Of a stretch of 64,000 bases of DNA, positions 2,677-37,809 are shown piece by piece. The position numbers were made by a program, and so were the translations under genes. A model generated the notes under the pieces. The model saw only the letters and a program-made list of their open reading frames with translations, was not told the origin of the DNA and searched no databases. The stretch covers positions 155,964 through 219,963 of the forward strand of contig JADGBR010000001.1 of NCBI GenBank assembly GCA_015231405.1. The letters are read 5' to 3'. This stretch comes from Candidatus Omnitrophota bacterium (GTDB taxonomy: Bacteria > Omnitrophota > Gorgyraeia > Tantalellales > Tantalellaceae). The first letter of the stretch is position 1, and each line of letters begins with the position of its first letter.

Positions 2677-3473
2677 TAAGCCCATTGTTGAAAAAGATCC
2701 TTGTGTCCGTCGTATCGTTGGCGGTCATATTGCTTTTTTTCGCTTTTTTAGATTCCCGGAGGGTAACGCCCGTATTGATGTACCATTCAATAAGCGTCGG
2801 AGGTGATAGCGGCACGCTTCAAGTTTCTCCTGAAAACTTTGACAGGCAAATGCGCTACCTTTCCAGGCGAGGATATAAGGTTATAACTTTGGACGAGCTT
2901 TATTCGTTCATGAAAGAAGGCAAAAAATATCTTCCCCGCACCGTGGCCATAACATTTGACGACGGTTTCGAGGATAATTATGTTAACGCTTTTCCAATTC
3001 TTTCAAAGTATAACATGCCTGCGACGATCTTTCTCGTGACGGGGTATATCGGGAAAAAAGAGAAATATCTGAACTGGGACCAGGTGCGTCTCATGCAAAA
3101 AAACGGTATCGATTTTGGCTGCCATACAATGAATCACGCTTATCTTCCTACGCTAAAGAGCGAGGATGAAGTGCTGGCGGAGATAAACGGGAGTAAGAAC
3201 GACCTTGAAAATAATATCGGCACGGATGCCGGGTTCTTTTGTTATCCTACCGGCGGATATAATCAAAAGGTAAAAGAGCTTGTCAGGAGATCCGGATTTC
3301 TTATGGCGTTCACCACTAAACGCGGGGGTAATGCGGATAACATGGATCTATTCGCACTGAACAGGATCAAAGTAACTAACTCGGATATGGTGAAGCCCTT
3401 GCACTTTAAGGCCAAATTGTCAGGCTTTTATAACATACTCAGGACCGCCAGAGACGGGGAATCGGGGTATTAG
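2673..3473 (+). CDS. polysaccharide deacetylase (NodB-homology, CE4) with N-terminal TM anchor
   Basis: TFDDGFEDNY, FLVTGYIG, HTMNHAYL, CYPTGGY motifs of CE4 deacetylases. An alternative upstream ATG at 2643 overlaps the ferredoxin. Confidence 0.75.
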   Translation: MISPLLKKILVSVVSLAVILLFFAFLDSRRVTPVLMYHSISVGGDSGTLQVSPENFDRQMRYLSRRGYKVITLDELYSFMKEGKKYLPRTVAITFDDGFEDNYVNAFPILSKYNMPATIFLVTGYIGKKEKYLNWDQVRLMQKNGIDFGCHTMNHAYLPTLKSEDEVLAEINGSKNDLENNIGTDAGFFCYPTGGYNQKVKELVRRSGFLMAFTTKRGGNADNMDLFALNRIKVTNSDMVKPLHFKAKLSGFYNILRTARDGESGY

Positions 3474-3487
3474 GTAAAGGAGGCAAC

Positions 3488-4777
3488 ATGAGCGATTCTA
3501 TCAGTTACGACACGAAATATCTTGGCGCTTTTGTGACAAATAAGGACATAGAGAATATTTTGCCTGAACTCGAGACCGCGCATAATTATCTGACACGGAA
3601 GAACGGACCGGGGAAAGATTTTCTGGGTTGGACGGACCTTCCGACGAGTACCGGCAGGGCAATGCTTCTGGATATGGTGAAAACCGCGTCCCGCCTTCGT
3701 AAAAAAGCTGATATTATAATAGTGGTCGGCATCGGAGGGTCCTACCTTGGCGCTAAAGCCGCGATAGAAATGCTCACGCCCGAGTTCGGCGAAAAAAAGG
3801 TCTTTTTTGCCGGGTTCAATATTTGCGATGAATATCTTGACGGTCTTTTAAGGATGGCCAAAGGGAAAGAAATAGCCGTCAACGTTATCTCAAAATCGGG
3901 AACTACAACGGAACCGGCGATAGCTTTCCGGATGATCTTCGACCTTATGAAGAAAAAATATTCACGGAAGGAACTAGCCGGGAGAATAGTCTGCACTACC
4001 GATAATAAGAGAGGGGCGTTAAAAGCGATGGCTGACGCTAACGGGTACAAATGTTATGTCATCCCCGACGATGTAGGAGGGAGATTCTCAGTGCTTTCAC
4101 CTGTAGGTCTTTTTCCGGCCGCCGCCGCCGGGATCGATATAAGCGAGATGATAAAAGGGGCCCAAAAATGCCGCAAGGAGCTGTCTTCTCCCGATATCAA
4201 TAAAAATCAATGCTATAAATACGCCGCCGTAAGGAATATTCTTTACAGAAAAGGGAAACGGATAGAAGTGCTGTCGAATTTCGATAATAAGTTCCATTTT
4301 GTCTCCGAATGGTGGAAACAGCTTTTCGGAGAAAGCGAGGGGAAGGCCTCTAAGGGCATATTCCCGGCGTCCTGCGATTTCAGCGCCGATCTTCATTCTA
4401 TGGGCCAGTTCCTTCAGGACGGCTCCCGGAATATCTTCGAGACTTTTCTTGTTGACTGTGAGGACCGGGACATGTGTGTTATCCCCAAAGAGAAGTCGGA
4501 TACTGACGAGCTGAACTATCTCGCCGGGAAGAGCCTCTCTTTTGTGAACAGAAAAGCGTATATGGCCACCAGCGAAGCCCATTTCGAGGGAGGAGTTCCG
4601 AACTCTTCGATCATGATCCCGGCCAAAACGGCTTTTTATCTGGGACAACTTTTCTACTTTTTCCAGACCGCCGTCGCTATTTCCGGATATATATCGGGAG
4701 TTAATCCCTTCGACCAGCCCGGTGTCGAGGCATATAAGAAGAAGATGTTCAAGCTGTTGGGGAAACCCGGAGCGTGA
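3488..4777 (+). CDS. pgi: glucose-6-phosphate isomerase (short bacterial/B. subtilis-type PGI)
   Basis: IIVVGIGGSYLGAKAAIE nucleotide/sugar-phosphate binding motif; SKSGTTTEP; whole-length collinearity with the ~450-aa PGI family. AGGAGG SD upstream. Confidence 0.9.
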   Translation: MSDSISYDTKYLGAFVTNKDIENILPELETAHNYLTRKNGPGKDFLGWTDLPTSTGRAMLLDMVKTASRLRKKADIIIVVGIGGSYLGAKAAIEMLTPEFGEKKVFFAGFNICDEYLDGLLRMAKGKEIAVNVISKSGTTTEPAIAFRMIFDLMKKKYSRKELAGRIVCTTDNKRGALKAMADANGYKCYVIPDDVGGRFSVLSPVGLFPAAAAGIDISEMIKGAQKCRKELSSPDINKNQCYKYAAVRNILYRKGKRIEVLSNFDNKFHFVSEWWKQLFGESEGKASKGIFPASCDFSADLHSMGQFLQDGSRNIFETFLVDCEDRDMCVIPKEKSDTDELNYLAGKSLSFVNRKAYMATSEAHFEGGVPNSSIMIPAKTAFYLGQLFYFFQTAVAISGYISGVNPFDQPGVEAYKKKMFKLLGKPGA

Positions 4778-23842: not shown

Positions 23843-26800
23843 ATGAAAAAATTCAACACGCTAATATTGTTGATTTCTTTTACCATCAATCAGATGGTGA
23901 TCCCCGTAAAAGCGGACGTCGCAAAGCTGATAGATCCCGGTACTTTCTACATACCCGGAAAGATCGGTGAAATAATGACTTTGGTCAAAGGGAATTCAGG
24001 AAAGACCATAATTAATATAACTGACGCGCACTGCAATTATTCTGCCCAGGACAATATCTGCAAGATACTTCAATATTTGACATCAAACGAAACCCCTGAG
24101 ATCGTCTTTCTTGAGGGGGGATCGGGCAAATATGATTTCAGCGTTTTCGATAAAATTAATGACACAGAAATTAAAGAGAGGATCGTCGAAATATTACTTA
24201 AAGAAGGAAGGCTCTCGGGCGCGGAGAAATATGGTATAGGATCCAATAACAGCATAAGGCTCGAGGGGCTTGAAGAAAAGGATCTTTATGACAAAAATCT
24301 CGGGTATTACAGAGGATCCCTGACAATGAAGGATACAGTCCAGCCTTATCTGGATAAATTAAGAGGGATCCTCGCGAAAATCAAAAAGAACCTGTATTCC
24401 GAAGAGATGATCAAGATCGATGATATGTTCGACAGGTATGAGTCAGGGGAACTTAACATAAAAGACCTTATTGTTTTGATCTCAGGTCTTTTGGCGCAAA
24501 AGAGCGCGGATCTCCTGGCGTATAAGAACATAGTCGGCCTCGCTGGGATAGTGAACGATGAGAAGAGGATTGATTTCGAAAGGGCAGAGAAAGAGATGGA
24601 AAATGTGATGGACCTTTTGACCAAAACACTTCCAGGGAACGAGAGAACAAAACTCCTTGAGCAGCTGACGGGATTTAAGGACGGCGATATCGATAAGGAA
24701 ATGTTTTACGGATATCTTTTTAAACAGCTCCGGCTGTCTTCGGCTGACATGTCCAATTACGAGAACCTAAGGAAATATTCGGAATATATATCAGGGTATG
24801 AAAACATCGATAAAGGCGAGCTTGCCAGAGAGATCCGAAGAGCCCGTACTGACCTTTTTGAAAAGTCATTTACTGGAGACGATCAGAAAGAATTATTCGC
24901 GCTAGTGAATTATCTGGTCGCCGTCGATAAGCTCATTAACGCAAAGCTCGTTAAGGAAGAATTCAATGATTATATAAAAATGGCATCAAGAGTTGACCTT
25001 GACGGGGTCAAAGCGTTCATAGCCAAAAACTATCCCATTGACGGGGATCATCTTAATATGAGCGAAGCCCAAAATGAATACCCAATGATCGTGGATCTGA
25101 TGGAAAAATTTTACAAATGCTCTTTTGAAAGGGATGTTGTATTCCTCGGCAAGATCGACAAGTATATGACCGTTAATAAAATGAAGAGCGCGGTCATGGT
25201 TACCGGAGGTTTTCATAAAGATAATCTGAAAGGCCTGTTCGAAAAAGCGGGTTTTAATTACATAGAAGTGATGCCGGTAATTAAAAAGACCGATGTGGCG
25301 AATAATTATTTTAAACTGCTTTCAGGTGAACGGTCCGATCTCGAGGGATTCATTGATACTGCCGTGTCACTCCTTCCCGGGAATTCATTCCTGGCTTTAA
25401 GGAGCGTTTTCTCCGAGATGGGGATATCCGACATAAAGGCAGGGAACGAAACTGTCCTTAAGATCGCGATGCTTGAAAAACTCCTGAACGGTGAGGAGTT
25501 CACGATAAGGACGAAGCAAGGCTGGTGGATAGTGATTTCGCCCGAAGGAGTGAAAAGCGTTAACGCAAACGTATTTAAGAGCGATACCGGAACGATAGGG
25601 GGCCAAAAGATCACCGCGGAAGTATTCAGGCCCGAAGCCAGATTCGACGCAAATGTCAGCGAGGCGGATATCGTTCTTGTGGACGGGGACGAGCTCAATC
25701 ATATTCAGCAGGAGTTGTGGATAGACGGGCTAGGAAAGGAAATGGGGTATAAGGCATTGAGAGATGTCATCGACACGGAGCCATTTATCGACAAGCTTTA
25801 TGAATTCGGCCTTGAAGAGCAGCATGTCGAATATCTTAAGCTGAATTATATTAATACCGATAAGCTAAGGGTGTGGAACGATAAGGACATGCGTATGCCT
25901 GTCGACGGTCATCCCGGAGCGGAGGGCGTTGTCTATTTGACAAGCCATCTTTTCAACGCGAATGACACCAGAGGAGCCGTACTCGCTTTCCTTCACGAAC
26001 TTGGAGGGGCTTATAAGAACGGCGAATTGAAGCGTACCCATGCAGATAATAGACAGCTTGACGACGCTTACGCCTCCGGTGACAGGGACCTCATAAAAAA
26101 GAAGGCTATTGAAATAGTCGAATTCGCTTCCGGCGGGACAGGCATGGCTCGTGGTGAAAAAAGGGATTATGCCGATAAAGTCGATATGGAGGCGGCGAAG
26201 CCGGTAACGATAGAGGACTTTGAGACCCTGACGAGCGATCACCAGAAAGAAAATGTCATAAGGGAGCTGAAAACCATACACGCTGAAATCATGTCGATGG
26301 CCGAGGAATACAAAGAGAGAACGGGTGATCCTAAATACCTGACGATAACGATGAGGGAACAGAAACGGTTCCTTAAAACATTTGAAAGCGTTTATTATAA
26401 ACGCATAAAAGAAACCGGAGACGAAAGTCTTTCGTACGCACATGCGCTTAATACGGCTAAACAGGGCTACTACGATATTTTTCCTGAAAGTTTCGTTCGA
26501 GAGGAGATCGGGGACGTTAATGTACATGACGCCCCGTTGCCTGAAGAACTGGACGCCTTGCATTCCGAGGTCTACCGAAAGCTGTCGAGGGCCATAGACA
26601 CCGATTTTCCGTCGCTTTTCAACTGTCCGGTAGACACTCTTGGAGAGCTGGACGACGCGCTCGATATCTATGTCAGGAACCACAGCGGGATAGGCAAGGT
26701 CGAAAAGGTCGTGTGCACGCCGGATACCGACAGCACGCAGTTGATAGGTTGCCTTCTGCCCGTCGATCCGAAAGACAGGAAGGGAGCGGAAAAGGTGCGG

Positions 26801-29800
26801 TTTGAGATGGGGGTTATTTACCGGATGGTGGAACATGCCAGAGACGATCCGGAACATACGCATATATTAAGATTGGACCAACTGGAGGCTTTATCCCCCA
26901 AAGTATGGGTCATATTGAACCAGTTCCTGTTAACGGACGAAATGACGGTGCCTGAAGCCGACCCGACCAAAGGAAAAGCCGTAAGGAAACTGAAACGGCC
27001 GAAAAATCTGAAGATCATAACGTCTATAAATAAGGGTCTGGATGACAGCGCGTTCTATGACAGGTTTTTAAGAAAGACCATTGACTCCCCGAGCGATGAG
27101 GTGCTGGGGGCATATATAATGAGCCATTATGGTCTTCCGGAATGGGCCGCGAAAGATATGGTCAGCCTGAAAAACAATAATGAAGCGGTAAATAACGGTC
27201 AGTTGTTCATTATCCTGGATTATATCAAAGGCAGGCTGTCGGAATCTGAAAGTAAAGGTGAAAAGGCCTTGAAGGATATCATTGACCAGGAAGTCGGCCT
27301 TTATTTAGGGAACCTTAAACCGCTTAAGCCGGGGGACGGATATGAGACCAAAGTCGAATTCAAGGACGATAAGCTCATGTTTGACGGCGTCGAGCTCGCA
27401 ATTAATGACGGGCTTAGAGCTAAGATAAAACAGGCGGTAAAAAGCCAGGACGACATCGAAGCCATTAAAAAAGCCATAAAAGAAACTGTCTCTATCAGCA
27501 TGACGAGGGACGTGGCGAGGGCCTTGAGCGCTATCGCGAGGAATTACCGCTATGGGAATAAGGTTATCCAGCTCGAGGGCCCTACCGGGTCCGGAAAGAC
27601 CTTCCTCGCGGAATCATTGGCTAAAATGCTGAATATCCCGTTTTATGGGGAACCTTTCCATGCCTCCAGTAAGCAGACAAAGCTTCTTGGGTCTTTTGTC
27701 CCGGATCCGACAGGGGAGTTCTACCTTGATACGGACACGCAGTTCCTCCGGCATATACAAGACGGTGGGGTAATAGCCTTATCCGAACTTAACGCCTGCG
27801 AAAAGGACGGGTACGCGCGATTCGGCTGGTTGATGGTCCCGTTCGCTAGCGGTGAAGATACGCTCGAACTAAACCAGTATCCTTTACCCGGAGAGGGCGG
27901 GGAAATGTTCAGGTCGGTAAAAAGGCATAAGGATTCGATGATCATCATAGACACCAACCCTTCGGACGCTTATAAGTCCAGAGCGGCCCTCCCGCCGATG
28001 CTGAACGCCTATACCCCGAAAGTATGGGTGGAGGGAAAGTATACCATGGAGGAGCTTAAAGAGATATCAGCCGACTTCATCGAAAGTAAAGAGGTAAGCG
28101 GCGATGAAAAGGGTTTCTTTACGGATGTCCTTTCCGAACTCCATTTTAAGGTCCAGGAGGAGCTCGAGAGAACAGATCCGAAGTTATCCAGAGGCCGTGA
28201 GCATATAGTAACGATGAGGGAGCTTACGCGTACGAGTAAAATGATAAGGAGCGAAAATAAGAATAAAGATAAAGGCCAGAACTATTATGACGCGGCCATG
28301 CTTTATTACGGATCGGCGTTCAAGAATGAGGCCGATAGAGAGCTGGTAAAGGGTTATATTAAAGAAATATTATCCGGGCAAGGTATAGCTGTTTCCTGCC
28401 TTAAAGAGAGGGATGACAATTATTTTCTTAGAACGTCGATCCTTAACACTAAAAACTCGACAATGCTCTCGCTTCCGGCGATGGATAACCCCTTTGATGT
28501 AATACAGGAAGCGCTCGGTGAAGAAAAGAATGTCGAGGTCGAAAAGTATAACGCCAATTATTTTACCGACGATTTCGGTCTTTTAGGAGGTTATGTGCCT
28601 AATGAAGGGAGCAAATATAACGAGGAAATGGCCTTCCGCATGGTCGACGGTATCATACTGAAGAACATAAAAAAAGCGTTGAAAGAAAAGGATAAGACTT
28701 TTATCCTGGCTTTCGAGAATTTCCATTATCTGAGGCCCAAGATGGCGGTAGCGCTTAATTCAATACTCCAGGACAGGGTATATTATTCGATAGCTAAAGA
28801 AGGCGGCGTGAAAACAAAAGAAAGGATAGAAATACCCGACAACCTGAAGTTCGTCTCCACCGCTTCTAACGAGGTCGAGTTCCAGATGTCTCTGGCGGAA
28901 CAGTCCAGGTGGGTAAGGATATTCGGTTCCGGAGATAAGTCCAGGGCTCCGCCCGAAGAAAGACAAGCGAAAGTATACGCCGACGCCGATGAATTAAGAA
29001 AAGCTTACAAAAAAGATCGTTCTCAGCTAGACCCGAATATACATCCGGAGCCGGTCACTGACGGGAAAGGGCTTCTCGTCCCGACCAAAGAAATGATGGA
29101 AGCTGAAAGCCGGATGGTTGATGCGATGGACGATGATAAAGTCATTCTCCTGGAAGGCCCCCCTGGAGGCGGAAAAACGGAATACGCTTTGGATATAGCG
29201 AACAGGCTTGGCCTAAAATCCTATCTGTATTCGGCCCACGCGAATTCCCATCTCAGGGACCTTATCGGCAGTTATGTGCAGGATAAGGACGGGAAATATG
29301 TTCTTACGGCCCGTGAAAAAGACGGCCATTTTATGGCTCCGTTCCTTGAATGTCTTAAGAACGGCGGTGTGTTCATTATAGACGAGGGCGCTATAGGAGT
29401 TAACGCCCAGGCCATTATTAGCTGGCTTACGGGTATTGCAAGAGGCGATAAAGAGATAGCCATAAACGAACATCTCGGAATGGATGAGCCGTTAAGGATC
29501 AAAAGGCATGAGAACTTTCATCTTGTCATCACCACAAATCCCGTCGAAGAAACCCCTGACAGGATGAAAATACCCATAGAGGTCCTTGAACGTTCGGAAC
29601 GCATTTGGGTGACGGATGACATTTGCAGGAAATCATATGATAGTATCACGGAATTCTTTTACGATCTTTACGCCGGAAATGACCCGAAAATGGCGGAGCA
29701 TAAGAAGAACTATACCGTTGCCGCTCTTTCAAGCCTCCATATAAAGATGAAAGAAATACTTTCCGCGCAGGGGTTCGTTAATGACCCGGACAGGCATCTT

Positions 29801-32800
29801 ATGACATTGCGCGACCTTAAGGCCTTGATCGCCGCTTTCAGTTATTATGTAAAGGCCGGAATGGATAGTAAACCCGCATTCAACGCCGCCTTTGAGCTTG
29901 TGTATCTGGCTCAATTCAGTGACTTGGTCAAAATCCAGATACTAAAGAAGCTTGAAGAAGTATTGGATGGCAACGCGAAAGACAGGATAGACTTCAATGC
30001 CGGACGCTTCGAGGACAAGCCGATGGATATGGCTGGCATGATAAAGAGAGGCCCAATGGCCCAGTCCGAACAAAAAGTTATAAAACAGATAAAAGACCTG
30101 ATCGGGATAAATAAAAATCCGCTTCTTCTACTCGAACCGGGATCAAGGGAAAAAGAGATCATATCCGCTTTTTCCGAAAAAGAAGGATATGAGCTATTCC
30201 ACTGCGATAGCCACCCGGAGATGACCAGTTTGGACCTTATCGGAGGCACGTTCCCGTTCTTTGAGGAAAAGGGCATGGAGGCGGAAAGGTTAAGTGAATT
30301 GCCTGGTTTTATCGGGAGGCATCTTGTCCGGAAAGAAGATATAGATAAACCGGGTGAAAAAAAGCTTCTTGTTATACACAATATTGACGCCCTTCATGAA
30401 AAAGTCAGGACAGTCCTAAATAATTTTCTGCTTAAAGGTTCCATCGATATCCAGGATCAAATGGGAAGGACCAGGACGATGTATCTGCCGAAAAATGTCA
30501 GGATAATGGCGGCCTGCTCGGAAAAGACGGGTGAGGAAATATCCGGGGCGTTCTGGAACAGGTTCCAGAAAATAGATGTGCCGCCGATAAGTTATATGGA
30601 GAACGGTAATTCGGAGCTGCTCGAGCTCCTTTTGTATGATTCGGGCCTGTCGGAATACGGCGCGATGGGGGAAATGGTATCCAGATATATCCAGTATCTG
30701 CACTCTTTCACTGACCGGTTGGACGCGGAGAGCGAGTGGCCTTCGGGGAAAAAGTACGCATTCACGGTAAAAGAGGCTTTGCTTCTCGGGAAATACGTGA
30801 AGATAGCGATAGACGACGCGAAAAAAGACCCAGAGGAAATAGACGTAGCTAAGGCGAAAGAGATGGTCATCAGGGAAGCTTATAACCTGTACGGGGGTAA
30901 GATAAAAGAACATCAAAGCGACCTGGATTTCTTCGAGCAGAACGTTCTTAAGATCATATTCGATCACAGGCTGGTAAAGAATTTATCGGGTACTGTCGTG
31001 AAGGAAAAAGGCGTCGTTACGGAACTGGCCGGGGTTAAATTGCCGCACGGGACAAAAGGTAAAAGGCTTGAGGATATAGATCCCGAATACAGGCTTATTC
31101 TCGTAAAAGAAATAGTCAATACGATGGCTGGCATCGTCAGGGCCTGGAGATCCGGGAAAGTGGTCTCCATGACCGGTGAAACGGGAACCGCGAAAACCAC
31201 GATGGGGGTTTTTCTTTCTCAGCTTATGTTCGGGGAAGAGGCCGGAGAGGACAGCTACTACATATTTTCGACCCACGGCGCGTCGAAAGCAAGAGACCTT
31301 GAATATCAGCTGAGGATGACCGAGGAAGGCAAGTACCGGCTGGAAATACAGGAATTCATTAAGAAGATAGAGGAAGGGAATAAGGTCATCATAATCGACG
31401 AGGCGAACATGAGGCCGGAGATGCTCTGGGCAATTAACGCCATAGCGAGGGGCGAGAAGGAGATAACGCTTCAGATCCCGGGCGAAAAACAATACAAGGT
31501 AAGGGTAGGCGACAACGTCAATATCATAATGACTATGAACCCCACAAGCTATAAAGACAGGAAAGATGTTCCCGGGATACTTAAGGAGAATGTCGTGAAC
31601 CTGTGGTCCAGCCTCAATTACTCGGAAGCCGAGATGGACATGATACTTAAGGGGATGATGGGAGCGATGGAGCGAAAACTGCTGGGTAAGAAAGGGAAAG
31701 TGTCACAGGAAGCGGAAACAAGCGAGGAGGATAAGGCAATCCCGGCAAAAGACGGCGTTTTTGAGGATTTCAGGGGGTCGATCGATCTTGAGAAATTCCT
31801 GGAAAGGGTATACGAGTTCGGACATGACGAGGCTCTCGAAAAAACGCCGCAGGAAGTGATCTCAAATTTGGAAAAAGAACTGCTTGAAAGAGATGACGTC
31901 AAGAAGCGCATGGCGAGGATCGAAACGACGGTCAAGAACCTTACACGGGGCATATCTGTCGAATATTCAACATATTATCCGTGGGGGCAGTCGAACGAGG
32001 CTGGGAAGTTACTTATTCCTCTCGATCAGCTGGTCAATCCTCTTCTTACGGACGACATGATAATCTCCTTCATAATGCACGAAATAAGGCATTGGAGATA
32101 TTCGCCGACCCCTAAAGATATTATGGGGGATATCGCGGAGGATCTTGTGAAAACTATCCCTAAAGCGAGGGAGATCCTGTCTTCGAGCGATTTTAATTAT
32201 TATTGGAATGTCCTTGAAGATCACAGGATAAACGCGGTGCGAACTCGTTTTGACGGCGAGAATTCATATATAGATACCTTTATAGGAACGAACTTTACTG
32301 ATCCCGAACAATCTCTAAAAATACAGGAAAAGCTGGAGACTTTCATAGATGGAGGAGAATACATAAGGGCTTTCTGGGAATATATACTATACTACGGATA
32401 TGCGCGGGAACATACACCCGGATTTCCAAGGTATCCGAAGGCCTTAAGGGACGCGATCAATAAAATAACGGACGGCGGGGATAATTCGGTCTTGTACAGA
32501 GCGGTATTGTCGGGCGATGTCCATCCGGACTACGATGCGCTGGTAATTGATAAGAACGCCCCTGAGAACAGGGCGAAGATGATAAAAGCCGCCATTAACA
32601 GTTTGAAGGTCATAATAGGCGAAATACATCCGGTATTTCTTGAAGTCGTTGAATATGAAAGAAAAGAGCGGGAGAAAAAGCATAAAGACAAGGATAAAGG
32701 CGAAAAAACGAAAAAAGAGGCGAAAGCACCGAAAGAAGCTAAAGAAGCGAAACAACGGCCCATAGAGGATCTTTCCGAAGGACCTCTTACCCAGGCTCCT

Positions 32801-35800
32801 TTAAGCCCGCCGCCGGGTGCGATGCCAAATAATGATAAGGGTGTTGAGACGCCCGTTGATATGCCTAAGCCCTGGGATGAAAGGCCACAAACGGATATAC
32901 CGTTAACAGGCACCTCCGGTTCCGGAGCTTCCGATGAGAAAGGCCGGGGGGAACAAGGTGAAAGTGCTCCGGGTGACGATATGTCAGGGGAAGAATATCC
33001 TTCGGGAATGGATAAGGGAGCCGGACCGGTGATGCCAGGTTCTGATGCTTTTTCCGGAAAAACCATTAACTATGATCCCGTACAATGGAAAGAGATGACT
33101 AAAGAGGAGCTCGAGAGATTGATAGAGAAAAGTAAAAGGATAAGAGGTGCTACGGAGTTACCGGAGGAATCATCTAATGATTTTCTGGCCGAGATAAGGA
33201 GGATAGTCGAAAATCCGCCTGAAACACCTCATGAGTTTGAAGGGTACAGGAAATTCTACAGGGAATTTGTAGAACAGGTTAAATATTCGCACAATATGGC
33301 TATTACGGATGAATTATTCGAATACTATGGGCATCTCATTAAAAACGCCAAGACACTCCGGGATGTTATCGACCGGCTGCCGGAAGAGATCAAAAAGCTG
33401 ATGGACGAAACACGGGAACTGTTCGAGGAGATCGAGGAGGACATCGAGCAGGAAAACAGCGAAACGGGTATGCAAATCGATATTGAGGCGAAATGGAGCA
33501 GAAAAAAAGAACAATTCATAGAAAATATTATAAAGGATAGGAAAAGATCGGATATAGCTGTAGGGGTTACGCTCGTCCCTGATATGTGGGCGAGCGGGGC
33601 ATATGAAGAGATACTTGCCGTGTTCCTTCAGACTTTCAATAAGCTGGAGAGAAGGAAGGTCGAGTACAGCGTGAGTTTTAGCGATGTCTCATATTCTTTG
33701 CGGGAAGGCATAGCGTTCAACGAAAAGGTAAAGAAAATGGAACAGCTCGAGCAAAGGTACAGAGAAATGCTTCTGTACTTGGCTTTGACCAATCACGGTA
33801 ATAATCAACAGTCTTCAAAGGTGGGTATCGGTAGATTCACGCCGCTTAAGCTGGTCCTAAGCATAATGCAGAAATATTCCGGAGTTAAAAAAACGAATAA
33901 GATCGAGTTTATCGTTACGGATGGGTCGATCGAGGAAACGTCCTGTTATATGTTCTTCCCGTCGGAAACCGGGAAAGGGTATCTGGGGAGCGACGATATC
34001 TTTCTAAGACCGAGCGGCGTTATCGGCCCGTATTACGATATGCCGGGTTGTACCAAAGACCTGGTAATGGAAGCGACAGAGGCGCTCAATTATCTGGCGA
34101 ATTATGAGCATAATTTAAGGATATGGAAGGCGTGCATACAAAGGGCGAAAGATGGCGGCATGACAGACGCGGAATTAAAAAGAAAAGGGCTGACCGAAGA
34201 TGAGTTCCCGGGATTGCACGTACTTAAAAATGATCCGGACCCAAGAAGCATGGGAGCTCGATTGGCGAAGGAATATGGCTTCAGATTCGACCAATGGGGT
34301 TATAACTGGCCCAGCGTGACGGAAAAAGTGAGCATGAGTGACAGGATAAAGGCCATAATAAGAGCCAGCGACCTTGTCACGCGCCTAAGAATGAAAGCCG
34401 GTATAATATTGCCGGCATCCGAGGAATATCTTGAAAGAGCGAGACAGGCTCCGGGCGGGGATAAGGCTAAATTCGGTATGCCTGTTCCGACCCGGAAATT
34501 AGCCGACGCTTTAAGTGACGCGAAGTCGAAAGGGATAGATATTATAGGGGTGGGAACTAAAAAGGAATACAAGGGAGTTCAGCTATTCGATTCATGGATC
34601 TATATCGACGGATATTCACCGCATGTGGTCACTTTCCTCATGCTGGAGCTGTCCAACTATAAAAAGAAACACCCGGGAGATTTTCCGAAAGGTGATCTTT
34701 TTGAGAACTTGCCGGGGTTAAGGGAAAAAGCCGATAAAATGCAAAAAGAGACGGCCAGTGCCGCTAAGATGCCCGGCATGAAAGCTCCCTCGGAAAATAG
34801 CATAGAAATGAACCTTCTTGATCTTGAGAATAACTCTGCGCCGGTACAGCATGAGGAAATACTGATCAAACGAAAGATCGAATTAGGAGGCGACGGGCGC
34901 GAGTTAAAAGTCGCATTCAGGGTGCTTGACGAAAATGTCGCTGACAAAGTCAAGAGTGTAGCTATGAGCCCGAGCAAGGCTTTCTTCGATATTGGCGGAG
35001 ATACCTTTTTTGCCGTGAGGAGAGAAATGCCGGACGGTTCCATAAATATATTTCTGACTAAAAAGTCGATGGCCAGGCTTATCGTCGACGAAAAGGCTCT
35101 CATGGCCCTTGCTATGCACGAAGTTTACGATACCGGCGAGAAGGAAGGGCCCGGTTCGCATAAATGGGCGTGGGATAAAGTCAAAAAGGAGAACCCCGAA
35201 GGTATGAGCTCTCTCCTTAGATTCATGATCGACAATATGGATGAGGCCCAAGTTAAAGCTCTTGCATCCGAATATGAAGAAGACCTTTCGGGAAGAAAAG
35301 CGTCGGGAGAGTGGGGGCCATTCGAGGAAGATATTCACTCATATTGCCTGGGAAGGCTCGATGCGATCAGGACTTCAACGGAAACGGATAAAAATTCGAT
35401 ACTTAAATATGAATTATCAGGAACATCGGAAGGCCGCCTGGAAAAAATAAGGTGTGAGTCCGGCATTGCTCCTGAAACGAATTCAACGGAGAAGGCGAGA
35501 TCCGAGATGCTGGACGTTTACGGTAAACTCCTGTCCGGAGTTTACAAGAATACGCATAATAAGGAGAAATGTTATGATTTCATATTGAGCGCTGTCCCCA
35601 CGGCAAAGGACGATGAAGGGCAACCGGTCGATTACGCCGAAAGCGTCCTATCAGGGCTCATGGGTAAATTAAGGAGCCAGGGAGACGCCGCGGTAGCAAA
35701 AGCTCAGATAGGGAATATAACGTCCAGGTATACGATGGGAGCTTTAGCGGCAAAGAGCATGGTCGAGAGTATTGTCGAGCTTTCAAAAAGCGTTCCCGAT

Positions 35801-36277
35801 GGGAGGATACACTGTTCGATCAGCGCAAAAATACTTAAGGAGCTCGAAGAGCTGAACGCAGGTGAACAATTCATTGTAGGAACTGTAAAAGACTTTTTGA
35901 CGGGACATGTGATGCTCGACATTATAACCGATACCGCTACGACGGAGAAGGAAGAGACCGTATACCCGCTTTCCTTCGCCAAGTGCAAGGCATTAGGCCT
36001 CGCCAGGTTCAACATGGCGCATGTGGGGGCGATGGTGGATAAGAACGACGACCTGTATAAAAGTTCATTAAGGCTTGTAGGCCTCGCGATCGCGTATTTG
36101 ACCAATAACACGGACAACGCGGATAATATCGTCAAATCGCTGGAGGAGGCTTCGGGAAAAGATAAAGAATTCTATAAAAGGGTTTTCGAGCTTGTGCTGC
36201 CCGAAGTGGCTAAAATAAACATAAACGAGATTAACAATATATTTCAGGCCGAAGCGGAGGTATTCGCGTCTCTCTAA
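23843..36277 (+). CDS. giant midasin-like AAA+ protein (4144 aa): signal/anchor peptide, TraB/GumN-like domain, six tandem AAA_5 modules (alternating degenerate/intact), helical HExxH region, acidic/Pro-rich disordered linker, VWA-like segment, ~700 aa unknown
   Basis: Single uninterrupted ORF. Signal-like N-terminus MKKFNTLILLISFTINQMVIPVKA. TraB/GumN motifs (IINITDAHCN about aa 57; MVTGGFHKDNLKGLFEKAGFNYIEV about aa 452). Walker A boxes GPTGSGKT (nt 27578), GPPGGGKT (nt 29168), GETGTAKT (nt 31175), each with an hhhhDE Walker B and a TNP/MNP sensor-1 (AAA_5 hallmark). Three interleaved AAA-like modules lacking Walker A (about nt 26700, 28500, 30120). HEIRH at nt 32078. K/E- then P/G/D/E-rich low-complexity at 32660-33070. 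FIVTDGSIEE (VWA TDG motif) at nt 33907. Confidence 0.85.
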   Translation: MKKFNTLILLISFTINQMVIPVKADVAKLIDPGTFYIPGKIGEIMTLVKGNSGKTIINITDAHCNYSAQDNICKILQYLTSNETPEIVFLEGGSGKYDFSVFDKINDTEIKERIVEILLKEGRLSGAEKYGIGSNNSIRLEGLEEKDLYDKNLGYYRGSLTMKDTVQPYLDKLRGILAKIKKNLYSEEMIKIDDMFDRYESGELNIKDLIVLISGLLAQKSADLLAYKNIVGLAGIVNDEKRIDFERAEKEMENVMDLLTKTLPGNERTKLLEQLTGFKDGDIDKEMFYGYLFKQLRLSSADMSNYENLRKYSEYISGYENIDKGELAREIRRARTDLFEKSFTGDDQKELFALVNYLVAVDKLINAKLVKEEFNDYIKMASRVDLDGVKAFIAKNYPIDGDHLNMSEAQNEYPMIVDLMEKFYKCSFERDVVFLGKIDKYMTVNKMKSAVMVTGGFHKDNLKGLFEKAGFNYIEVMPVIKKTDVANNYFKLLSGERSDLEGFIDTAVSLLPGNSFLALRSVFSEMGISDIKAGNETVLKIAMLEKLLNGEEFTIRTKQGWWIVISPEGVKSVNANVFKSDTGTIGGQKITAEVFRPEARFDANVSEADIVLVDGDELNHIQQELWIDGLGKEMGYKALRDVIDTEPFIDKLYEFGLEEQHVEYLKLNYINTDKLRVWNDKDMRMPVDGHPGAEGVVYLTSHLFNANDTRGAVLAFLHELGGAYKNGELKRTHADNRQLDDAYASGDRDLIKKKAIEIVEFASGGTGMARGEKRDYADKVDMEAAKPVTIEDFETLTSDHQKENVIRELKTIHAEIMSMAEEYKERTGDPKYLTITMREQKRFLKTFESVYYKRIKETGDESLSYAHALNTAKQGYYDIFPESFVREEIGDVNVHDAPLPEELDALHSEVYRKLSRAIDTDFPSLFNCPVDTLGELDDALDIYVRNHSGIGKVEKVVCTPDTDSTQLIGCLLPVDPKDRKGAEKVRFEMGVIYRMVEHARDDPEHTHILRLDQLEALSPKVWVILNQFLLTDEMTVPEADPTKGKAVRKLKRPKNLKIITSINKGLDDSAFYDRFLRKTIDSPSDEVLGAYIMSHYGLPEWAAKDMVSLKNNNEAVNNGQLFIILDYIKGRLSESESKGEKALKDIIDQEVGLYLGNLKPLKPGDGYETKVEFKDDKLMFDGVELAINDGLRAKIKQAVKSQDDIEAIKKAIKETVSISMTRDVARALSAIARNYRYGNKVIQLEGPTGSGKTFLAESLAKMLNIPFYGEPFHASSKQTKLLGSFVPDPTGEFYLDTDTQFLRHIQDGGVIALSELNACEKDGYARFGWLMVPFASGEDTLELNQYPLPGEGGEMFRSVKRHKDSMIIIDTNPSDAYKSRAALPPMLNAYTPKVWVEGKYTMEELKEISADFIESKEVSGDEKGFFTDVLSELHFKVQEELERTDPKLSRGREHIVTMRELTRTSKMIRSENKNKDKGQNYYDAAMLYYGSAFKNEADRELVKGYIKEILSGQGIAVSCLKERDDNYFLRTSILNTKNSTMLSLPAMDNPFDVIQEALGEEKNVEVEKYNANYFTDDFGLLGGYVPNEGSKYNEEMAFRMVDGIILKNIKKALKEKDKTFILAFENFHYLRPKMAVALNSILQDRVYYSIAKEGGVKTKERIEIPDNLKFVSTASNEVEFQMSLAEQSRWVRIFGSGDKSRAPPEERQAKVYADADELRKAYKKDRSQLDPNIHPEPVTDGKGLLVPTKEMMEAESRMVDAMDDDKVILLEGPPGGGKTEYALDIANRLGLKSYLYSAHANSHLRDLIGSYVQDKDGKYVLTAREKDGHFMAPFLECLKNGGVFIIDEGAIGVNAQAIISWLTGIARGDKEIAINEHLGMDEPLRIKRHENFHLVITTNPVEETPDRMKIPIEVLERSERIWVTDDICRKSYDSITEFFYDLYAGNDPKMAEHKKNYTVAALSSLHIKMKEILSAQGFVNDPDRHLMTLRDLKALIAAFSYYVKAGMDSKPAFNAAFELVYLAQFSDLVKIQILKKLEEVLDGNAKDRIDFNAGRFEDKPMDMAGMIKRGPMAQSEQKVIKQIKDLIGINKNPLLLLEPGSREKEIISAFSEKEGYELFHCDSHPEMTSLDLIGGTFPFFEEKGMEAERLSELPGFIGRHLVRKEDIDKPGEKKLLVIHNIDALHEKVRTVLNNFLLKGSIDIQDQMGRTRTMYLPKNVRIMAACSEKTGEEISGAFWNRFQKIDVPPISYMENGNSELLELLLYDSGLSEYGAMGEMVSRYIQYLHSFTDRLDAESEWPSGKKYAFTVKEALLLGKYVKIAIDDAKKDPEEIDVAKAKEMVIREAYNLYGGKIKEHQSDLDFFEQNVLKIIFDHRLVKNLSGTVVKEKGVVTELAGVKLPHGTKGKRLEDIDPEYRLILVKEIVNTMAGIVRAWRSGKVVSMTGETGTAKTTMGVFLSQLMFGEEAGEDSYYIFSTHGASKARDLEYQLRMTEEGKYRLEIQEFIKKIEEGNKVIIIDEANMRPEMLWAINAIARGEKEITLQIPGEKQYKVRVGDNVNIIMTMNPTSYKDRKDVPGILKENVVNLWSSLNYSEAEMDMILKGMMGAMERKLLGKKGKVSQEAETSEEDKAIPAKDGVFEDFRGSIDLEKFLERVYEFGHDEALEKTPQEVISNLEKELLERDDVKKRMARIETTVKNLTRGISVEYSTYYPWGQSNEAGKLLIPLDQLVNPLLTDDMIISFIMHEIRHWRYSPTPKDIMGDIAEDLVKTIPKAREILSSSDFNYYWNVLEDHRINAVRTRFDGENSYIDTFIGTNFTDPEQSLKIQEKLETFIDGGEYIRAFWEYILYYGYAREHTPGFPRYPKALRDAINKITDGGDNSVLYRAVLSGDVHPDYDALVIDKNAPENRAKMIKAAINSLKVIIGEIHPVFLEVVEYERKEREKKHKDKDKGEKTKKEAKAPKEAKEAKQRPIEDLSEGPLTQAPLSPPPGAMPNNDKGVETPVDMPKPWDERPQTDIPLTGTSGSGASDEKGRGEQGESAPGDDMSGEEYPSGMDKGAGPVMPGSDAFSGKTINYDPVQWKEMTKEELERLIEKSKRIRGATELPEESSNDFLAEIRRIVENPPETPHEFEGYRKFYREFVEQVKYSHNMAITDELFEYYGHLIKNAKTLRDVIDRLPEEIKKLMDETRELFEEIEEDIEQENSETGMQIDIEAKWSRKKEQFIENIIKDRKRSDIAVGVTLVPDMWASGAYEEILAVFLQTFNKLERRKVEYSVSFSDVSYSLREGIAFNEKVKKMEQLEQRYREMLLYLALTNHGNNQQSSKVGIGRFTPLKLVLSIMQKYSGVKKTNKIEFIVTDGSIEETSCYMFFPSETGKGYLGSDDIFLRPSGVIGPYYDMPGCTKDLVMEATEALNYLANYEHNLRIWKACIQRAKDGGMTDAELKRKGLTEDEFPGLHVLKNDPDPRSMGARLAKEYGFRFDQWGYNWPSVTEKVSMSDRIKAIIRASDLVTRLRMKAGIILPASEEYLERARQAPGGDKAKFGMPVPTRKLADALSDAKSKGIDIIGVGTKKEYKGVQLFDSWIYIDGYSPHVVTFLMLELSNYKKKHPGDFPKGDLFENLPGLREKADKMQKETASAAKMPGMKAPSENSIEMNLLDLENNSAPVQHEEILIKRKIELGGDGRELKVAFRVLDENVADKVKSVAMSPSKAFFDIGGDTFFAVRREMPDGSINIFLTKKSMARLIVDEKALMALAMHEVYDTGEKEGPGSHKWAWDKVKKENPEGMSSLLRFMIDNMDEAQVKALASEYEEDLSGRKASGEWGPFEEDIHSYCLGRLDAIRTSTETDKNSILKYELSGTSEGRLEKIRCESGIAPETNSTEKARSEMLDVYGKLLSGVYKNTHNKEKCYDFILSAVPTAKDDEGQPVDYAESVLSGLMGKLRSQGDAAVAKAQIGNITSRYTMGALAAKSMVESIVELSKSVPDGRIHCSISAKILKELEELNAGEQFIVGTVKDFLTGHVMLDIITDTATTEKEETVYPLSFAKCKALGLARFNMAHVGAMVDKNDDLYKSSLRLVGLAIAYLTNNTDNADNIVKSLEEASGKDKEFYKRVFELVLPEVAKININEINNIFQAEAEVFASL

Positions 36278-37809
36278 CCCCAGAGGTTGCGGTCCAGGCA
36301 CCTGTATCCTATCGCTTCGGAAACGTTATGCGTGTTGATGACCTCCGAGCCTTCCATGTCGGCTATCGTTCGTGATAATTTCAGTATCTTGTCGTAAGCC
36401 CTGGCCGAAAGACCCATTTCAAGTATTACCGTTTTCAGGATATATTCCGCTTCTTTTGAGAGAACCGAGTGCTTGTCGAGCTCTTTCGGTGACATGTAAG
36501 CGTTGATAGCGAGGTGGCAGCTTTTTTCCGCGAACCGCTCTCGTTGTATAGCCCTCGCCTTAAGCACTCTTTGTTTAACTCGTGAAGTCGTTTCGCCCGA
36601 GCGTTTTCCTGAAAGTTGTTCGTAGTTGAGCCTTGGGACTTCCAGGTGTATATCAATGCGGTCAAGTAATGGGCCGGATATTTTAGACAGATATTTCTGT
36701 ATCTGTCCGGGATTACACCTGCACTCCTTTTTCGGGTCAGTTAGGTTCCCGCACGGGCAGGGGTTCATAGCGGCAATTAGTATGAACCTGGAGGGGTATT
36801 TGATCGAGCGTTCGGCCCGTGATATGGAGATCTCGCCTGATTCAAGGGGTTGTCTTAGCGTTTCGATGACGTCGCGCCTGTATTCCGGAAATTCGTCAAG
36901 GAATAGGACTCCGTTGTGGGCGAGGCTTATCTCCCCGGGGCGTGTATGAACCCCTCCTCCGGCCATGGCGGCATAAGAGATCGTGTGATGCGGGGCCCTA
37001 AAGGGGCGTTCGTCGACGAGGTCCTCATTCTTGAGTTCGCCCGCGATACTGTATATCTTCGTCGTTTCAAGCGACTCTTCATATGAGAGGTCCGGAAGCA
37101 GATAAGGGAACCTTTTCGCTAGCATGCTTTTACCAGAACCCGGCGGGCCAATTAAAAGGATGTTGTGGTTGCCCGAGGCGGCAATCTCAAGCCCTCTTTT
37201 TACGTGTTCCTGTCCTTTAACGTCTGAAAGGTCCCACAAATCTGACGGATTCTTCAGGGATGATATATTTTGGCGGGGTTTGACGGGTTCCATCGGTTCC
37301 GCGCCTGTCACATGCCTGATTATCTCATCAAGGGAACGGGCGCCGAAGATGATCATCCCATCGACATGTGAAGCTTCCCGGGAGTTAGAGACCGGCAGAA
37401 TAAAAGTAGGGAACCGGTTTTTTAGGGATATTGCCAGCGGAAGAGCGCCTTTAAAGGAACAAAGTTTACCCGTGAGCGACAGTTCCCCGCAAAAAAGGAT
37501 GTTATCCATTAGAGTCCCGTCGATCTGTTCCGAAGCGGCCAGTATTCCCAGAGCTATTGGGAGATCGAAACCGGAGCCTTCTTTTTTCATTCCTGCAGGA
37601 GCAAGATTGATAGTTATTTTTTTAGCCGGAAAAGAAAAACCCGAATTTCTGATAGCGGATCTTATCCTGGCGCGGCTTTCCTTAATAGAGCTGTCAGGGA
37701 GCCCAATTATTGAAAAGGAGGGAAGCCCCGAAGCCGTTACATCCGTTTCGACTGTTACCTGCTGTGATTCCATTCCTATCATGCAACCCGAATTGACTTT
37801 AGATATCAT
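36274..37809 (-). CDS. comM: Mg-chelatase-like AAA+ ATPase ComM/YifB family
   Basis: N-terminal Lon-protease-like/ChlI domain (GLPDSSIKESRARIRSAI, GSGFDLPIALGILAAS). AAA+ with Walker A GPPGSGKS. C-terminal Mg_chelatase_C. Convergent 4-bp overlap with the giant gene. Confidence 0.85.
   Translation of the reverse strand: MISKVNSGCMIGMESQQVTVETDVTASGLPSFSIIGLPDSSIKESRARIRSAIRNSGFSFPAKKITINLAPAGMKKEGSGFDLPIALGILAASEQIDGTLMDNILFCGELSLTGKLCSFKGALPLAISLKNRFPTFILPVSNSREASHVDGMIIFGARSLDEIIRHVTGAEPMEPVKPRQNISSLKNPSDLWDLSDVKGQEHVKRGLEIAASGNHNILLIGPPGSGKSMLAKRFPYLLPDLSYEESLETTKIYSIAGELKNEDLVDERPFRAPHHTISYAAMAGGGVHTRPGEISLAHNGVLFLDEFPEYRRDVIETLRQPLESGEISISRAERSIKYPSRFILIAAMNPCPCGNLTDPKKECRCNPGQIQKYLSKISGPLLDRIDIHLEVPRLNYEQLSGKRSGETTSRVKQRVLKARAIQRERFAEKSCHLAINAYMSPKELDKHSVLSKEAEYILKTVILEMGLSARAYDKILKLSRTIADMEGSEVINTHNVSEAIGYRCLDRNLWG

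Follow-up and report, generated by a model that had tools for sequence, protein, structure and literature searches.

What kind of machine is built when a single bacterial polypeptide carries six AAA modules whose ATP-binding sites are alternately degenerate and intact? This question is raised by a window of 64,000 nucleotides (nt), the whole stretch of DNA analyzed here, which covers positions 155,964 to 219,963 of the forward strand of contig JADGBR010000001.1 (GenBank assembly GCA_015231405.1) from a Candidatus Omnitrophota bacterium. One gene in the window holds the whole array:

23843..36277 (+), giant gene, a single intact open reading frame encoding 4144 amino acids (aa)

With a probability of roughly 0.7, we conclude that the array forms a single-chain, pseudo-hexameric ring of AAA_5 type, built as three consecutive pairs of a degenerate (A, “dead”) and an intact (B, “live”) module and containing three composite active sites.

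GenBank holds an identical protein (MBF0215528.1, “MAG: AAA family ATPase,” Candidatus Omnitrophota bacterium; MAG, metagenome-assembled genome) on a 491-kb contig, with AAA family as its sole annotation. Residue numbers convert to window positions as nt = 23843 + 3(aa − 1). The whole protein scored 108.9 bits against Pfam AAA_5 (PF07728; cut-off 22), and Pfam and NCBIfam scans gave no credible match within aa 1-880 or aa 2700-4144. Six AAA_5-type modules, here called D1 to D6, extend from aa ~905 to ~2620, and the ring region is laid out as follows:

26150..26554 (+), aa 770-904, B-type lid ahead of D1, with the sensor-2-like motif TMRE (R838) and hhalign matches to the D4 and D2 lids
26555..27097 (+), aa 905-1085, D1, A-type (dead) core; P-loop replaced by CPVDTLGE, Walker B D-Q, invariant finger R1074 (YDRF)
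27098..27487 (+), aa 1086-1215, D1 lid, an A-type helical subdomain with a small beta element in the AlphaFold model
27488..28042 (+), aa 1216-1400, D2, B-type (live) core; GPTGSGKT (K1252), S1314-E1315, sensor-1 N1372, post-sensor-1 R1380, no finger Arg
28043..28423 (+), aa 1401-1527, D2 lid, B-type; invariant R1459-E1460 (TMRE) and a weak Pfam match to AAA_lid_7, the midasin lid family
28424..28942 (+), aa 1528-1700, D3, A-type (dead) core; P-loop replaced by PAMDNPFD, Walker B E-N, invariant finger R1689 (SRW)
28943..29077 (+), aa 1701-1745, short, low-confidence connector between D3, which lacks a lid, and D4
29078..29626 (+), aa 1746-1928, D4, B-type (live) core; GPPGGGKT (K1778), D1847-E1848, sensor-1 N1899, post-sensor-1 R1907
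29627..30055 (+), aa 1929-2071, D4 lid, B-type; invariant R1990 (TLRD)
30056..30592 (+), aa 2072-2250, D5, A-type (dead) core, missed by Pfam; P-loop remnant EPGSREK, Walker B H-N, invariant finger R2240 (NRF)
30593..31105 (+), aa 2251-2421, D5 lid, A-type, from the AlphaFold model
31106..31618 (+), aa 2422-2592, D6, B-type (live) core; GETGTAKT (K2451), D2519-E2520, sensor-1 N2566, post-sensor-1 R2573; no lid follows

Whether all six segments are AAA folds was addressed by alignment and by structure prediction. MAFFT aligned the six modules with one another across the entire alpha/beta core. Scored segment by segment against the AAA_5 profile, D2 (33.3 bits), D4 (27.7 bits), and D6 (32.1 bits) exceeded the cut-off; D1 fell just below it (21.5 bits), with a match covering profile positions 27-139 only, so that the P-loop part lies outside the match; D3 was weak (12.8 bits, E 0.13), and the D5 segment did not match Pfam AAA_5. 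Two AlphaFold2 models, built on family alignments, span D1-D4 (aa 900-2075; pLDDT 80.6, pTM 0.74) and D4-D6 (aa 1746-2945; pLDDT 80.2, pTM 0.67). Read from the DSSP output, every one of the six modules in the two models contains five core strands and two additional strand pairs (beta-hairpins). The hairpins occupy the sites where members of the MoxR-dynein-midasin group characteristically carry a helix-2 insert and a pre-sensor-1 insert. When the models were compared with the Protein Data Bank (PDB) using Foldseek, the D1-D4 arc matched dynein motor domains and Rea1 (6i26, 6hyp; E ~1e-25, query TM-score 0.50-0.58), and the D4-D6 arc matched dynein rings (E ~1e-23, query TM-score 0.45-0.49, the query including ~300 non-AAA residues). 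Sequence and predicted fold both place the giant protein in the AAA_5 (MoxR-dynein-midasin) group.

The initial annotation, made from the sequence alone, had proposed six AAA modules with alternating degenerate and intact Walker A boxes, and MAFFT, AlphaFold, and about 60 family representatives bear this out: both models predict alpha/beta cores, six in all, and not purely helical linkers or a smaller number of cores. Its view that the degenerate modules keep only a C-terminal half was mistaken, as D1, D3, and D5 retain the complete core and have lost the P-loop Lys/Thr, the catalytic Glu, and, family-wide, the sensor-1 Asn. The intact Walker A motifs begin at aa 1246 (GPTGSGKT, nt 27578), aa 1772 (GPPGGGKT, nt 29156), and aa 2445 (GETGTAKT, nt 31175), the last Gly of the D6 motif being replaced by Ala; the first and third of these positions had been given correctly, and nt 29168, given for the second, lies inside the motif at GGKT. 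The three intact modules had also been credited with intact Walker B motifs, which holds for D4 and D6 (D-E); D2 has S-E.

How far the alternation extends beyond this one protein was assessed by residue counts over about 60 representatives, each standing for one cluster at 50% identity, and all counts are given in the order D1/D2/D3/D4/D5/D6. The Walker A K[ST] pair was present in 0/43, 59/59, 0/47, 58/58, 0/63, and 60/60; the catalytic Walker B Glu in 0/56, 59/59, 0/57, 65/66, 0/63, and 61/61; and the sensor-1 Asn in 5/56, 61/61, 3/43, 65/66, 4/63, and 59/59. A post-sensor-1 Arg (“Y..R”) occurs in D2 (61/61), D4 (63/66), and D6 (58/58) and is missing from the odd-numbered modules. The pattern was inverse for an Arg in the column just before strand beta5, the finger position (58/58, 0/61, 45/45, 4/66, 63/63, and 2/57), which reads “DRF” in D1, “SRW” in D3, and “NRF” in D5. 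The finger conservation that the initial annotation wished to see scored at the module interfaces is thus confined almost wholly to D1, D3, and D5. The S-E Walker B of D2 is invariant among the closest homologs, and the family as a whole has S-E or N-E. Chance P-loops were considered and rejected, the pattern being kept in the ~60 representatives. The near-invariance of both cis and trans residues across clusters argues for selection for hydrolysis, beyond folding alone, and ATP would on this evidence be hydrolyzed at three sites.

Within D5, aa 2098-2104 (nt 30134-30154) form a conserved P-loop remnant, E-P-G-[AS]-R, in which G2100 is invariant and P2099 and R2102 are nearly so. The Arg of this remnant might fill the phosphate site and thereby lock the interface between D5 and D6.

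Profile-profile comparison of the cores using hhalign places the modules in two alternating classes, A (D1, D3, and D5) and B (D2, D4, and D6). The A-A pairs (D1-D3, D1-D5, D3-D5) aligned with Prob 98.8-99.9 and E 1e-16 to 1e-31, and the B-B pairs (D2-D4, D2-D6, D4-D6) with Prob 99.3-99.9 and E 1e-20 to 1e-32, whereas all nine A-B pairs remained at Prob ≤51 and E 1e-4 to 0.5. Homology within each class indicates that the array was born by triplication of an A-B unit, and not from six modules that decayed independently.

If the B modules carry the cis residues, which residue completes their sites in trans? In Rea1, the arginine finger is carried by H4, and H4 of AAA5L supplies the AAA4 site (PMC6286127); from this we take the rule that module n+1 gives its finger to site n. 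Arg 210 of ChlI likewise acts from a neighboring monomer (PMC10653834). In a HMMER alignment of D4 with AAA5 of Mdn1, the Arg of the midasin “NRF” motif falls in the same column as the invariant Arg of the A modules, and ChlI R210 lies in the motif “LLDRFG.” AAA5 of Mdn1 carries both arginines, the post-sensor-1 “GGR” and the finger “NRF”; what is united in one midasin module is here divided, the post-sensor-1 Arg standing in B and the finger in A. Under the n+1 rule, D3 would serve the D2 site, D5 the D4 site, and D1 the D6 site, and no finger would face the dead pockets, since D2, D4, and D6 lack the finger Arg. The pairs D1·D2, D3·D4, and D5·D6 would then be joined internally by dead interfaces (D1 with D2, D3 with D4, and D5 with D6), and the active sites would lie between pairs, at the interfaces of D2 with D3, D4 with D5, and D6 with D1.

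The last of these sites requires the chain to close on itself, and the lids bear on this point. In the AlphaFold models, helical lids follow D1, D2, D4, and D5; D3 is followed by a short, low-confidence connector and D6 by one helix and then disorder. The lid that the initial annotation ascribed to each degenerate module is present in D1 and D5 and missing from D3; of the intact modules, D6 lacks one. A profile of aa 770-904 aligned with the D4 lid (Prob 97.8, E 1e-12) and with the D2 lid (Prob 94.8, E 5e-8) in hhalign, and a [ST]-x-R-[ED] motif is common to the three B-type lids (R838, R1459, and R1990), with the Arg invariant in the last two and kept in 51 of 54 members in the lid ahead of D1. 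The unit consequently starts at nt ~26150, with this lid, and not near nt 26700 as first annotated. There are thus three B cores and three B lids, the third lid preceding D1 and none following D6; the simplest reading is that the missing D6 lid is encoded ahead of D1, where it would cover the D6 site and close the ring. The invariant finger Arg of D1 points to closure between D6 and D1 as well. Rea1 offers a precedent, as every large subdomain there is packed against the small subdomain of the module before it, and the missing AAA6S is replaced by an N-terminal element or domain (PMC6286127). Three independent lines thus support the trimer of catalytic/non-catalytic pairs suggested in the initial annotation: the hhalign classes, the finger pattern, and the dynein/Rea1-like arcs together with the lid ahead of D1, from which closure would follow. 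A seventh AAA core upstream of D1 was also considered, and rejected: the weak D4 matches found there in 15 homologs cover nothing of the D4 model but its lid.

Outside the ring, the giant protein contains four further parts:

23843..23914 (+), aa 1-24, N-terminal, Sec-signal-like hydrophobic segment, MKKFNTLILLISFTINQMVIPVKA followed by DV, the only transmembrane (TM)-like segment in the protein
31940..32647 (+), aa ~2700-2935, HExxH domain, with H2746, E2747, and H2750 invariant and E2792/R2795 nearly so
32648..33532 (+), aa ~2936-3230, linker, of which the first ~150 residues (to ~aa 3080) are of low complexity
33533..34762 (+), aa ~3231-3640, VWA-like domain whose MIDAS is degenerate, V-P-D-M-W-A-S standing for the family's DxSGS

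The HExxH domain, ~240 aa long and mostly helical, directly follows the ring and has a near-invariant “ED.RI[DN]” motif (E2792, R2795) 42 residues downstream of the HExxH; it gave no credible Pfam match and no PDB sequence match. We regard it as a putative gluzincin-like Zn-metallopeptidase domain, perhaps a new one. The ~300-aa linker begins K/E-rich, continues as a G/P/S/D/E-rich stretch of low complexity and mixed charge, and is acidic and of ordinary complexity in its remainder. The VWA-like domain of MBF0215528.1 has a ~200-aa insertion after the TDG strand and gave no Pfam match. The family consensus is DxSGS...TDG, with DxSGS intact in those of the closest homologs that were displayed, and four of five VWA slices from homologs exceeded the Pfam VWA cut-off. 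A signal-like start is also present in most full-length homologs, and some homologs have extra TM clusters before D1, within an insertion between D3 and D4, or near the C-terminus.

The flanking genes encode a PDZ/TPR protein, a response regulator (PAS and HD domains), a ComM/YifB-type protein, and a TPR protein, and those around the homolog P0003 are pyrimidine-biosynthesis genes; the genes around the giant ATPase offer no hint of its function. The ComM/YifB-type gene (36274-37809, −; Pfam ChlI, Mg_chelatase, and Mg_chelatase_C) itself encodes an AAA+ protein of the same broad clade; it is convergent with the giant gene and overlaps the stop codon of the latter by 4 nt.

How might such a ring operate? 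We propose that the B modules bind, and probably hydrolyze, ATP with a kit comprising the Walker A Lys/Thr, Walker B Glu, sensor-1 Asn, post-sensor-1 Arg, and a lid with a sensor-2-like Arg. The A modules would be nucleotide-free AAA folds in which the finger Arg before beta5, acting in trans, is the sole invariant residue of catalytic type. ATP binding and hydrolysis would shift the three A·B bodies relative to one another. More speculatively, the ATP cycle of the ring may act on the linker-tethered VWA domain and a substrate bound to it, as in Rea1 and NorQ-NorD; the VWA domain may dock on the hairpin-lined face, and the ring may remodel the VWA ligand, perhaps feeding it to the HExxH domain.

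The family in which this arrangement recurs was difficult to find by simple means. An 876-aa query in a word-index search of a 5.8-billion-protein index returned a single relative, and a scan of genome contigs with a single protein query returned no match. An exhaustive phmmer search retrieved 614 proteins with E ≤1e-3, of which 73 reached E ≤1e-30; lengths were mostly between 3000 and 7600 aa. In ~80 representatives, the modules occur in the order D1-D2-D3-D4-D5-D6, each best matched by its own module hidden Markov model (HMM), and this order is fixed across all full-length members. Proteins of ~4,900 aa appear lower in the phmmer list; this length is typical of eukaryotic midasins, and their identity is judged by size alone. 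All named members from the protein search are Candidatus Omnitrophota. A pattern scan with D4 over 185,579 species-representative genomes gave 15 full-length D4 matches, 10 of them labeled Omnitrophota; the others (including loci L004, L005, L008, and L012) are in MAGs labeled, as recorded, Elusimicrobiota, Chlamydiae, Planctomycetales, “Actinomycetota,” or unclassified. The MAG studied here has at least three paralogs, all with the live/dead alternation: MBF0215528.1, MBF0215721.1 (P0009, 6162 aa, on the same 491-kb contig), and MBF0215968.1 (P0005, 5104 aa). In homologs, the ring tolerates insertions of ~100 to 3400 residues at two constant places, one following D3, which has no lid (P0004, P0017-P0029), and the other following the D4 lid (P0003, P0005, P0009); D1/D2 and D5/D6 are nearly always contiguous. 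Some database entries consist of only D1-D3 or only D4-D6.

Several points weigh against a closed ring with three hydrolytic sites. The AlphaFold models cover D1-D4 and D4-D6 separately, so that closure and the contact between D6 and D1 are a matter of deduction from the parts, and AlphaFold may be biased toward dynein-like packing. The Arg before beta5 would be a finger on grounds of topology and of homology to midasin “NRF” and BchI/ChlI “DRF”, and the assignment of each Arg to a site derives from the n+1 rule and not from Arg-to-P-loop distances. With its non-canonical Walker B, D2 may bind ATP yet hydrolyze it poorly and may differ kinetically from D4 and D6. The insertions between D3 and D4 and between D4 and D5, like the entries limited to D1-D3 or D4-D6, are compatible with half-rings. 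Finally, the signal-like N-terminus fits poorly with an ATPase of the cytoplasm, and an exported ATP-dependent ring would be odd.

Could the chain, then, remain open? A spiral that stays open, or a pair of half-rings (D1-D3 and D4-D6) assembling as a dimer or as a head-to-tail oligomer in which the D1 finger serves the D6 of another chain, would accommodate the large insertions at the D3/D4 or D4/D5 junction of many homologs, the half-length entries, the absence of a lid on D3, and models that span D1-D4 and D4-D6 and not D6-D1. However, a third B-type lid stands right before D1 and none after D6, both arcs are curved as in dynein and Rea1 rings (pTM 0.67-0.74), and the D1-D6 order is fixed in full-length members. 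The half-length entries, moreover, look like contig-end fragments: those with only D1-D3 stop within the long-insertion region of their subfamily, as such fragments would. We consider an open or half-ring arrangement unlikely, albeit deserving of real weight.

There is a slim chance that the dead modules have a regulatory role and bind ATP or ADP that they do not hydrolyze, in the manner of F1 alpha and Rea1 AAA1/AAA6. The conserved P-G-x-R remnant of D5 could be read in this way, and AAA1 and AAA6 of Rea1, which are non-catalytic, still show bound nucleotide (PMC6286127). Nevertheless, the Walker A Lys-Ser/Thr pair is missing throughout (0/43, 0/47, and 0/63 in D1, D3, and D5), the D1 and D3 sequences vary where the P-loop would be, the sensor-1 residue has been lost, and no finger Arg of a neighboring B module faces these sites. 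An even slimmer chance attaches to the array as a whole being an inactive scaffold, part of an adhesin or structural giant protein, with B modules that bind nucleotide only structurally. Omnitrophota giant proteins are usually discussed as adhesins or coat proteins (PMC10066038), and both the signal-like N-terminus and the degenerate MIDAS of this protein would suit that role. Against it, clusters that share ≤50% identity keep the catalytic Glu, the sensor-1 Asn, the finger Arg, and the sensor-2-like Arg nearly invariant. That the protein is a midasin ortholog acquired from a eukaryote, its alternation reflecting secondary decay of an ordinary ring, is scarcely credible: its ring, tether, and VWA layout, midasin as best PDB sequence match, and the ~4,900-aa proteins (identified by size) that follow the family in the exhaustive search speak for it, but the A modules are homologous to one another, which indicates A-B triplication and not independent decay, the ~4,900-aa proteins match mainly B-type HMMs, weakly and without positional correspondence, NorQ equals midasin as a match for a single module, the HExxH domain and signal-like segment are additional, and the named members are bacterial MAGs with multiple paralogs.

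If the single-chain (A-B)x3 ring is real, it would represent the simplest form of asymmetry, with three like composite sites, three dead interfaces, and the catalytic residues split by module class. The asymmetric mixtures of live and dead sites in dynein, midasin, and RNF213 are hard to dissect, and the present family would offer a tractable system for the coupling of three-site AAA+ hydrolysis to a tethered VWA/MIDAS domain. Rings made of one AAA+ chain, such as those of dynein, midasin, and RNF213, are seen as inventions of eukaryotes; the fusion of six AAA_5 modules in one chain would then not be limited to eukaryotes. It would also provide a probable intracellular, motor-like core for one class of the poorly understood Omnitrophota giant proteins. 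In a preprint on Omnitrophota giant genes, AAA_5 is merely listed among intracellular domains, and our searches of the literature on those genes, on midasin/VWA in bacteria, and on the origin of midasin and dynein turned up neither this family nor a single-chain AAA ring of alternating modules. The six-tandem AAA protein is held to have derived from MoxR “early in eukaryotic evolution” (PMC3495828). The Omnitrophota family may instead be a prokaryotic sister or precursor of the midasin-dynein lineage, with bacterial six-module AAA_5 rings bearing a tethered MIDAS before, or independently of, eukaryotes; we judge this quite improbable, and, if true, it would contradict that account (PMC3495828) and make (A-B)x3 a triplicated-heterodimer intermediate between hexameric MoxR proteins and asymmetric single-chain motors.

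Among known systems, midasin (Rea1/Mdn1) is closest in layout, with six AAA_5-type modules in one chain, a ring, a tether, and a C-terminal VWA/MIDAS domain; as here, its last module lacks a small subdomain and an N-terminal element substitutes for it (PMC6286127). It was also the best PDB sequence match (E 4e-12 for the region and 2e-18 for D4 alone). The arrangement of live sites differs, however: in Rea1, AAA2-5 are functional and AAA1 and AAA6 lack Walker B (PMC6286127), whereas here the live sites are those of D2, D4, and D6, and Walker A and the catalytic Glu are missing, in strict alternation, from D1, D3, and D5, which form a class of their own. The ~1700-aa helical linker of midasin is absent. 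Midasin carries a DxSxS MIDAS on a long linker with an acidic low-complexity region; in this protein the MIDAS is degenerate, and the tether measures ~300 aa, of which only the first ~150 residues, mixed in charge, are of low complexity. It also contains two features that midasin is not known to have, the HExxH domain and the signal-like N-terminus. Midasin acts in eukaryotic pre-60S ribosome maturation, whereas the present family has a bacterial host with several paralogs per genome. When the ~4,900-aa proteins, taken by size to be midasins, were compared with the module HMMs, they gave mainly B-type matches, all weak (12-50 bits), with a few short, weak D3/D5 matches, and their modules did not correspond in position to D1-D6. 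The giant protein is midasin-like in layout, yet it is no midasin.

Dynein heavy chains gave the top structural matches to D1-D4 (E ~1e-26, query TM-score up to 0.58) and to D4-D6 (E ~1e-24), and they too combine catalytic and degenerate modules in a ring made of one chain. The degenerate modules of dynein are contiguous (AAA5 and AAA6) and do not alternate. Dynein has an N-terminal linker, a coiled-coil stalk with a microtubule-binding domain in AAA4, and a buttress in AAA5; D4 and D5 here have ordinary predicted lids. Of the dynein heavy-chain families, Pfam returned AAA_6 and AAA_7 only, both weak and sub-threshold, and nothing for the stalk or for microtubule binding; the giant protein is thus not a dynein. 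The analogy drawn in the initial annotation to AAA1-4 versus AAA5-6 of dynein is loose, and F1 alpha3beta3 and (Torsin-LAP1)3 are better ones.

The MoxR-VWA pairs (NorQ-NorD, CbbQ-CbbO, and RavA-ViaA) resemble the giant protein in joining the action of an AAA_5 ATPase to that of a VWA/MIDAS protein. NorQ was the best single-module bacterial PDB match, with a score of 28 bits compared with 24 bits for midasin. The post-sensor-1 loop and pore of NorQ contact and hold the VWA protein NorD (PMC13036017). These ATPases are single-module homohexamers with a separate VWA protein from a neighboring gene, whereas six diverged modules, a peptidase-like domain, and a VWA domain are here encoded in one open reading frame.

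In F1/V1 alpha3beta3 (A3B3), catalytic and non-catalytic P-loop subunits alternate, the non-catalytic subunit donates the finger, and the hexamer has three catalytic sites; it differs from the giant protein in its RecA-like fold, its separate subunits, an alpha subunit that still binds nucleotide, and its rotary action on a central stalk. The proposed (Torsin-LAP1)3 ring is similar in a further respect, as a nucleotide-free, AAA-like activator gives its finger to a catalytic partner that has none, with the same complementary conservation. Torsin and LAP1 belong to the ClpB-like AAA+ clade; they are separate polypeptides of the eukaryotic endoplasmic reticulum and nuclear envelope, and the present protein fuses six AAA_5 modules with two beta-hairpin inserts. 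In LAP1/LULL1, the activator's strictly conserved Arg stands at the finger position, and the ring has three active sites (PMC4358337). The alternation of catalytic and activator modules is familiar from F1-ATPase and Torsin-LAP1, and what is new, as far as we found, is its occurrence in a single-chain AAA+ ring, in bacteria, and in another AAA+ clade. The giant protein would thus represent a natural, fused analog of F1 alpha3beta3 and (Torsin-LAP1)3 inside the MoxR-dynein-midasin clade.

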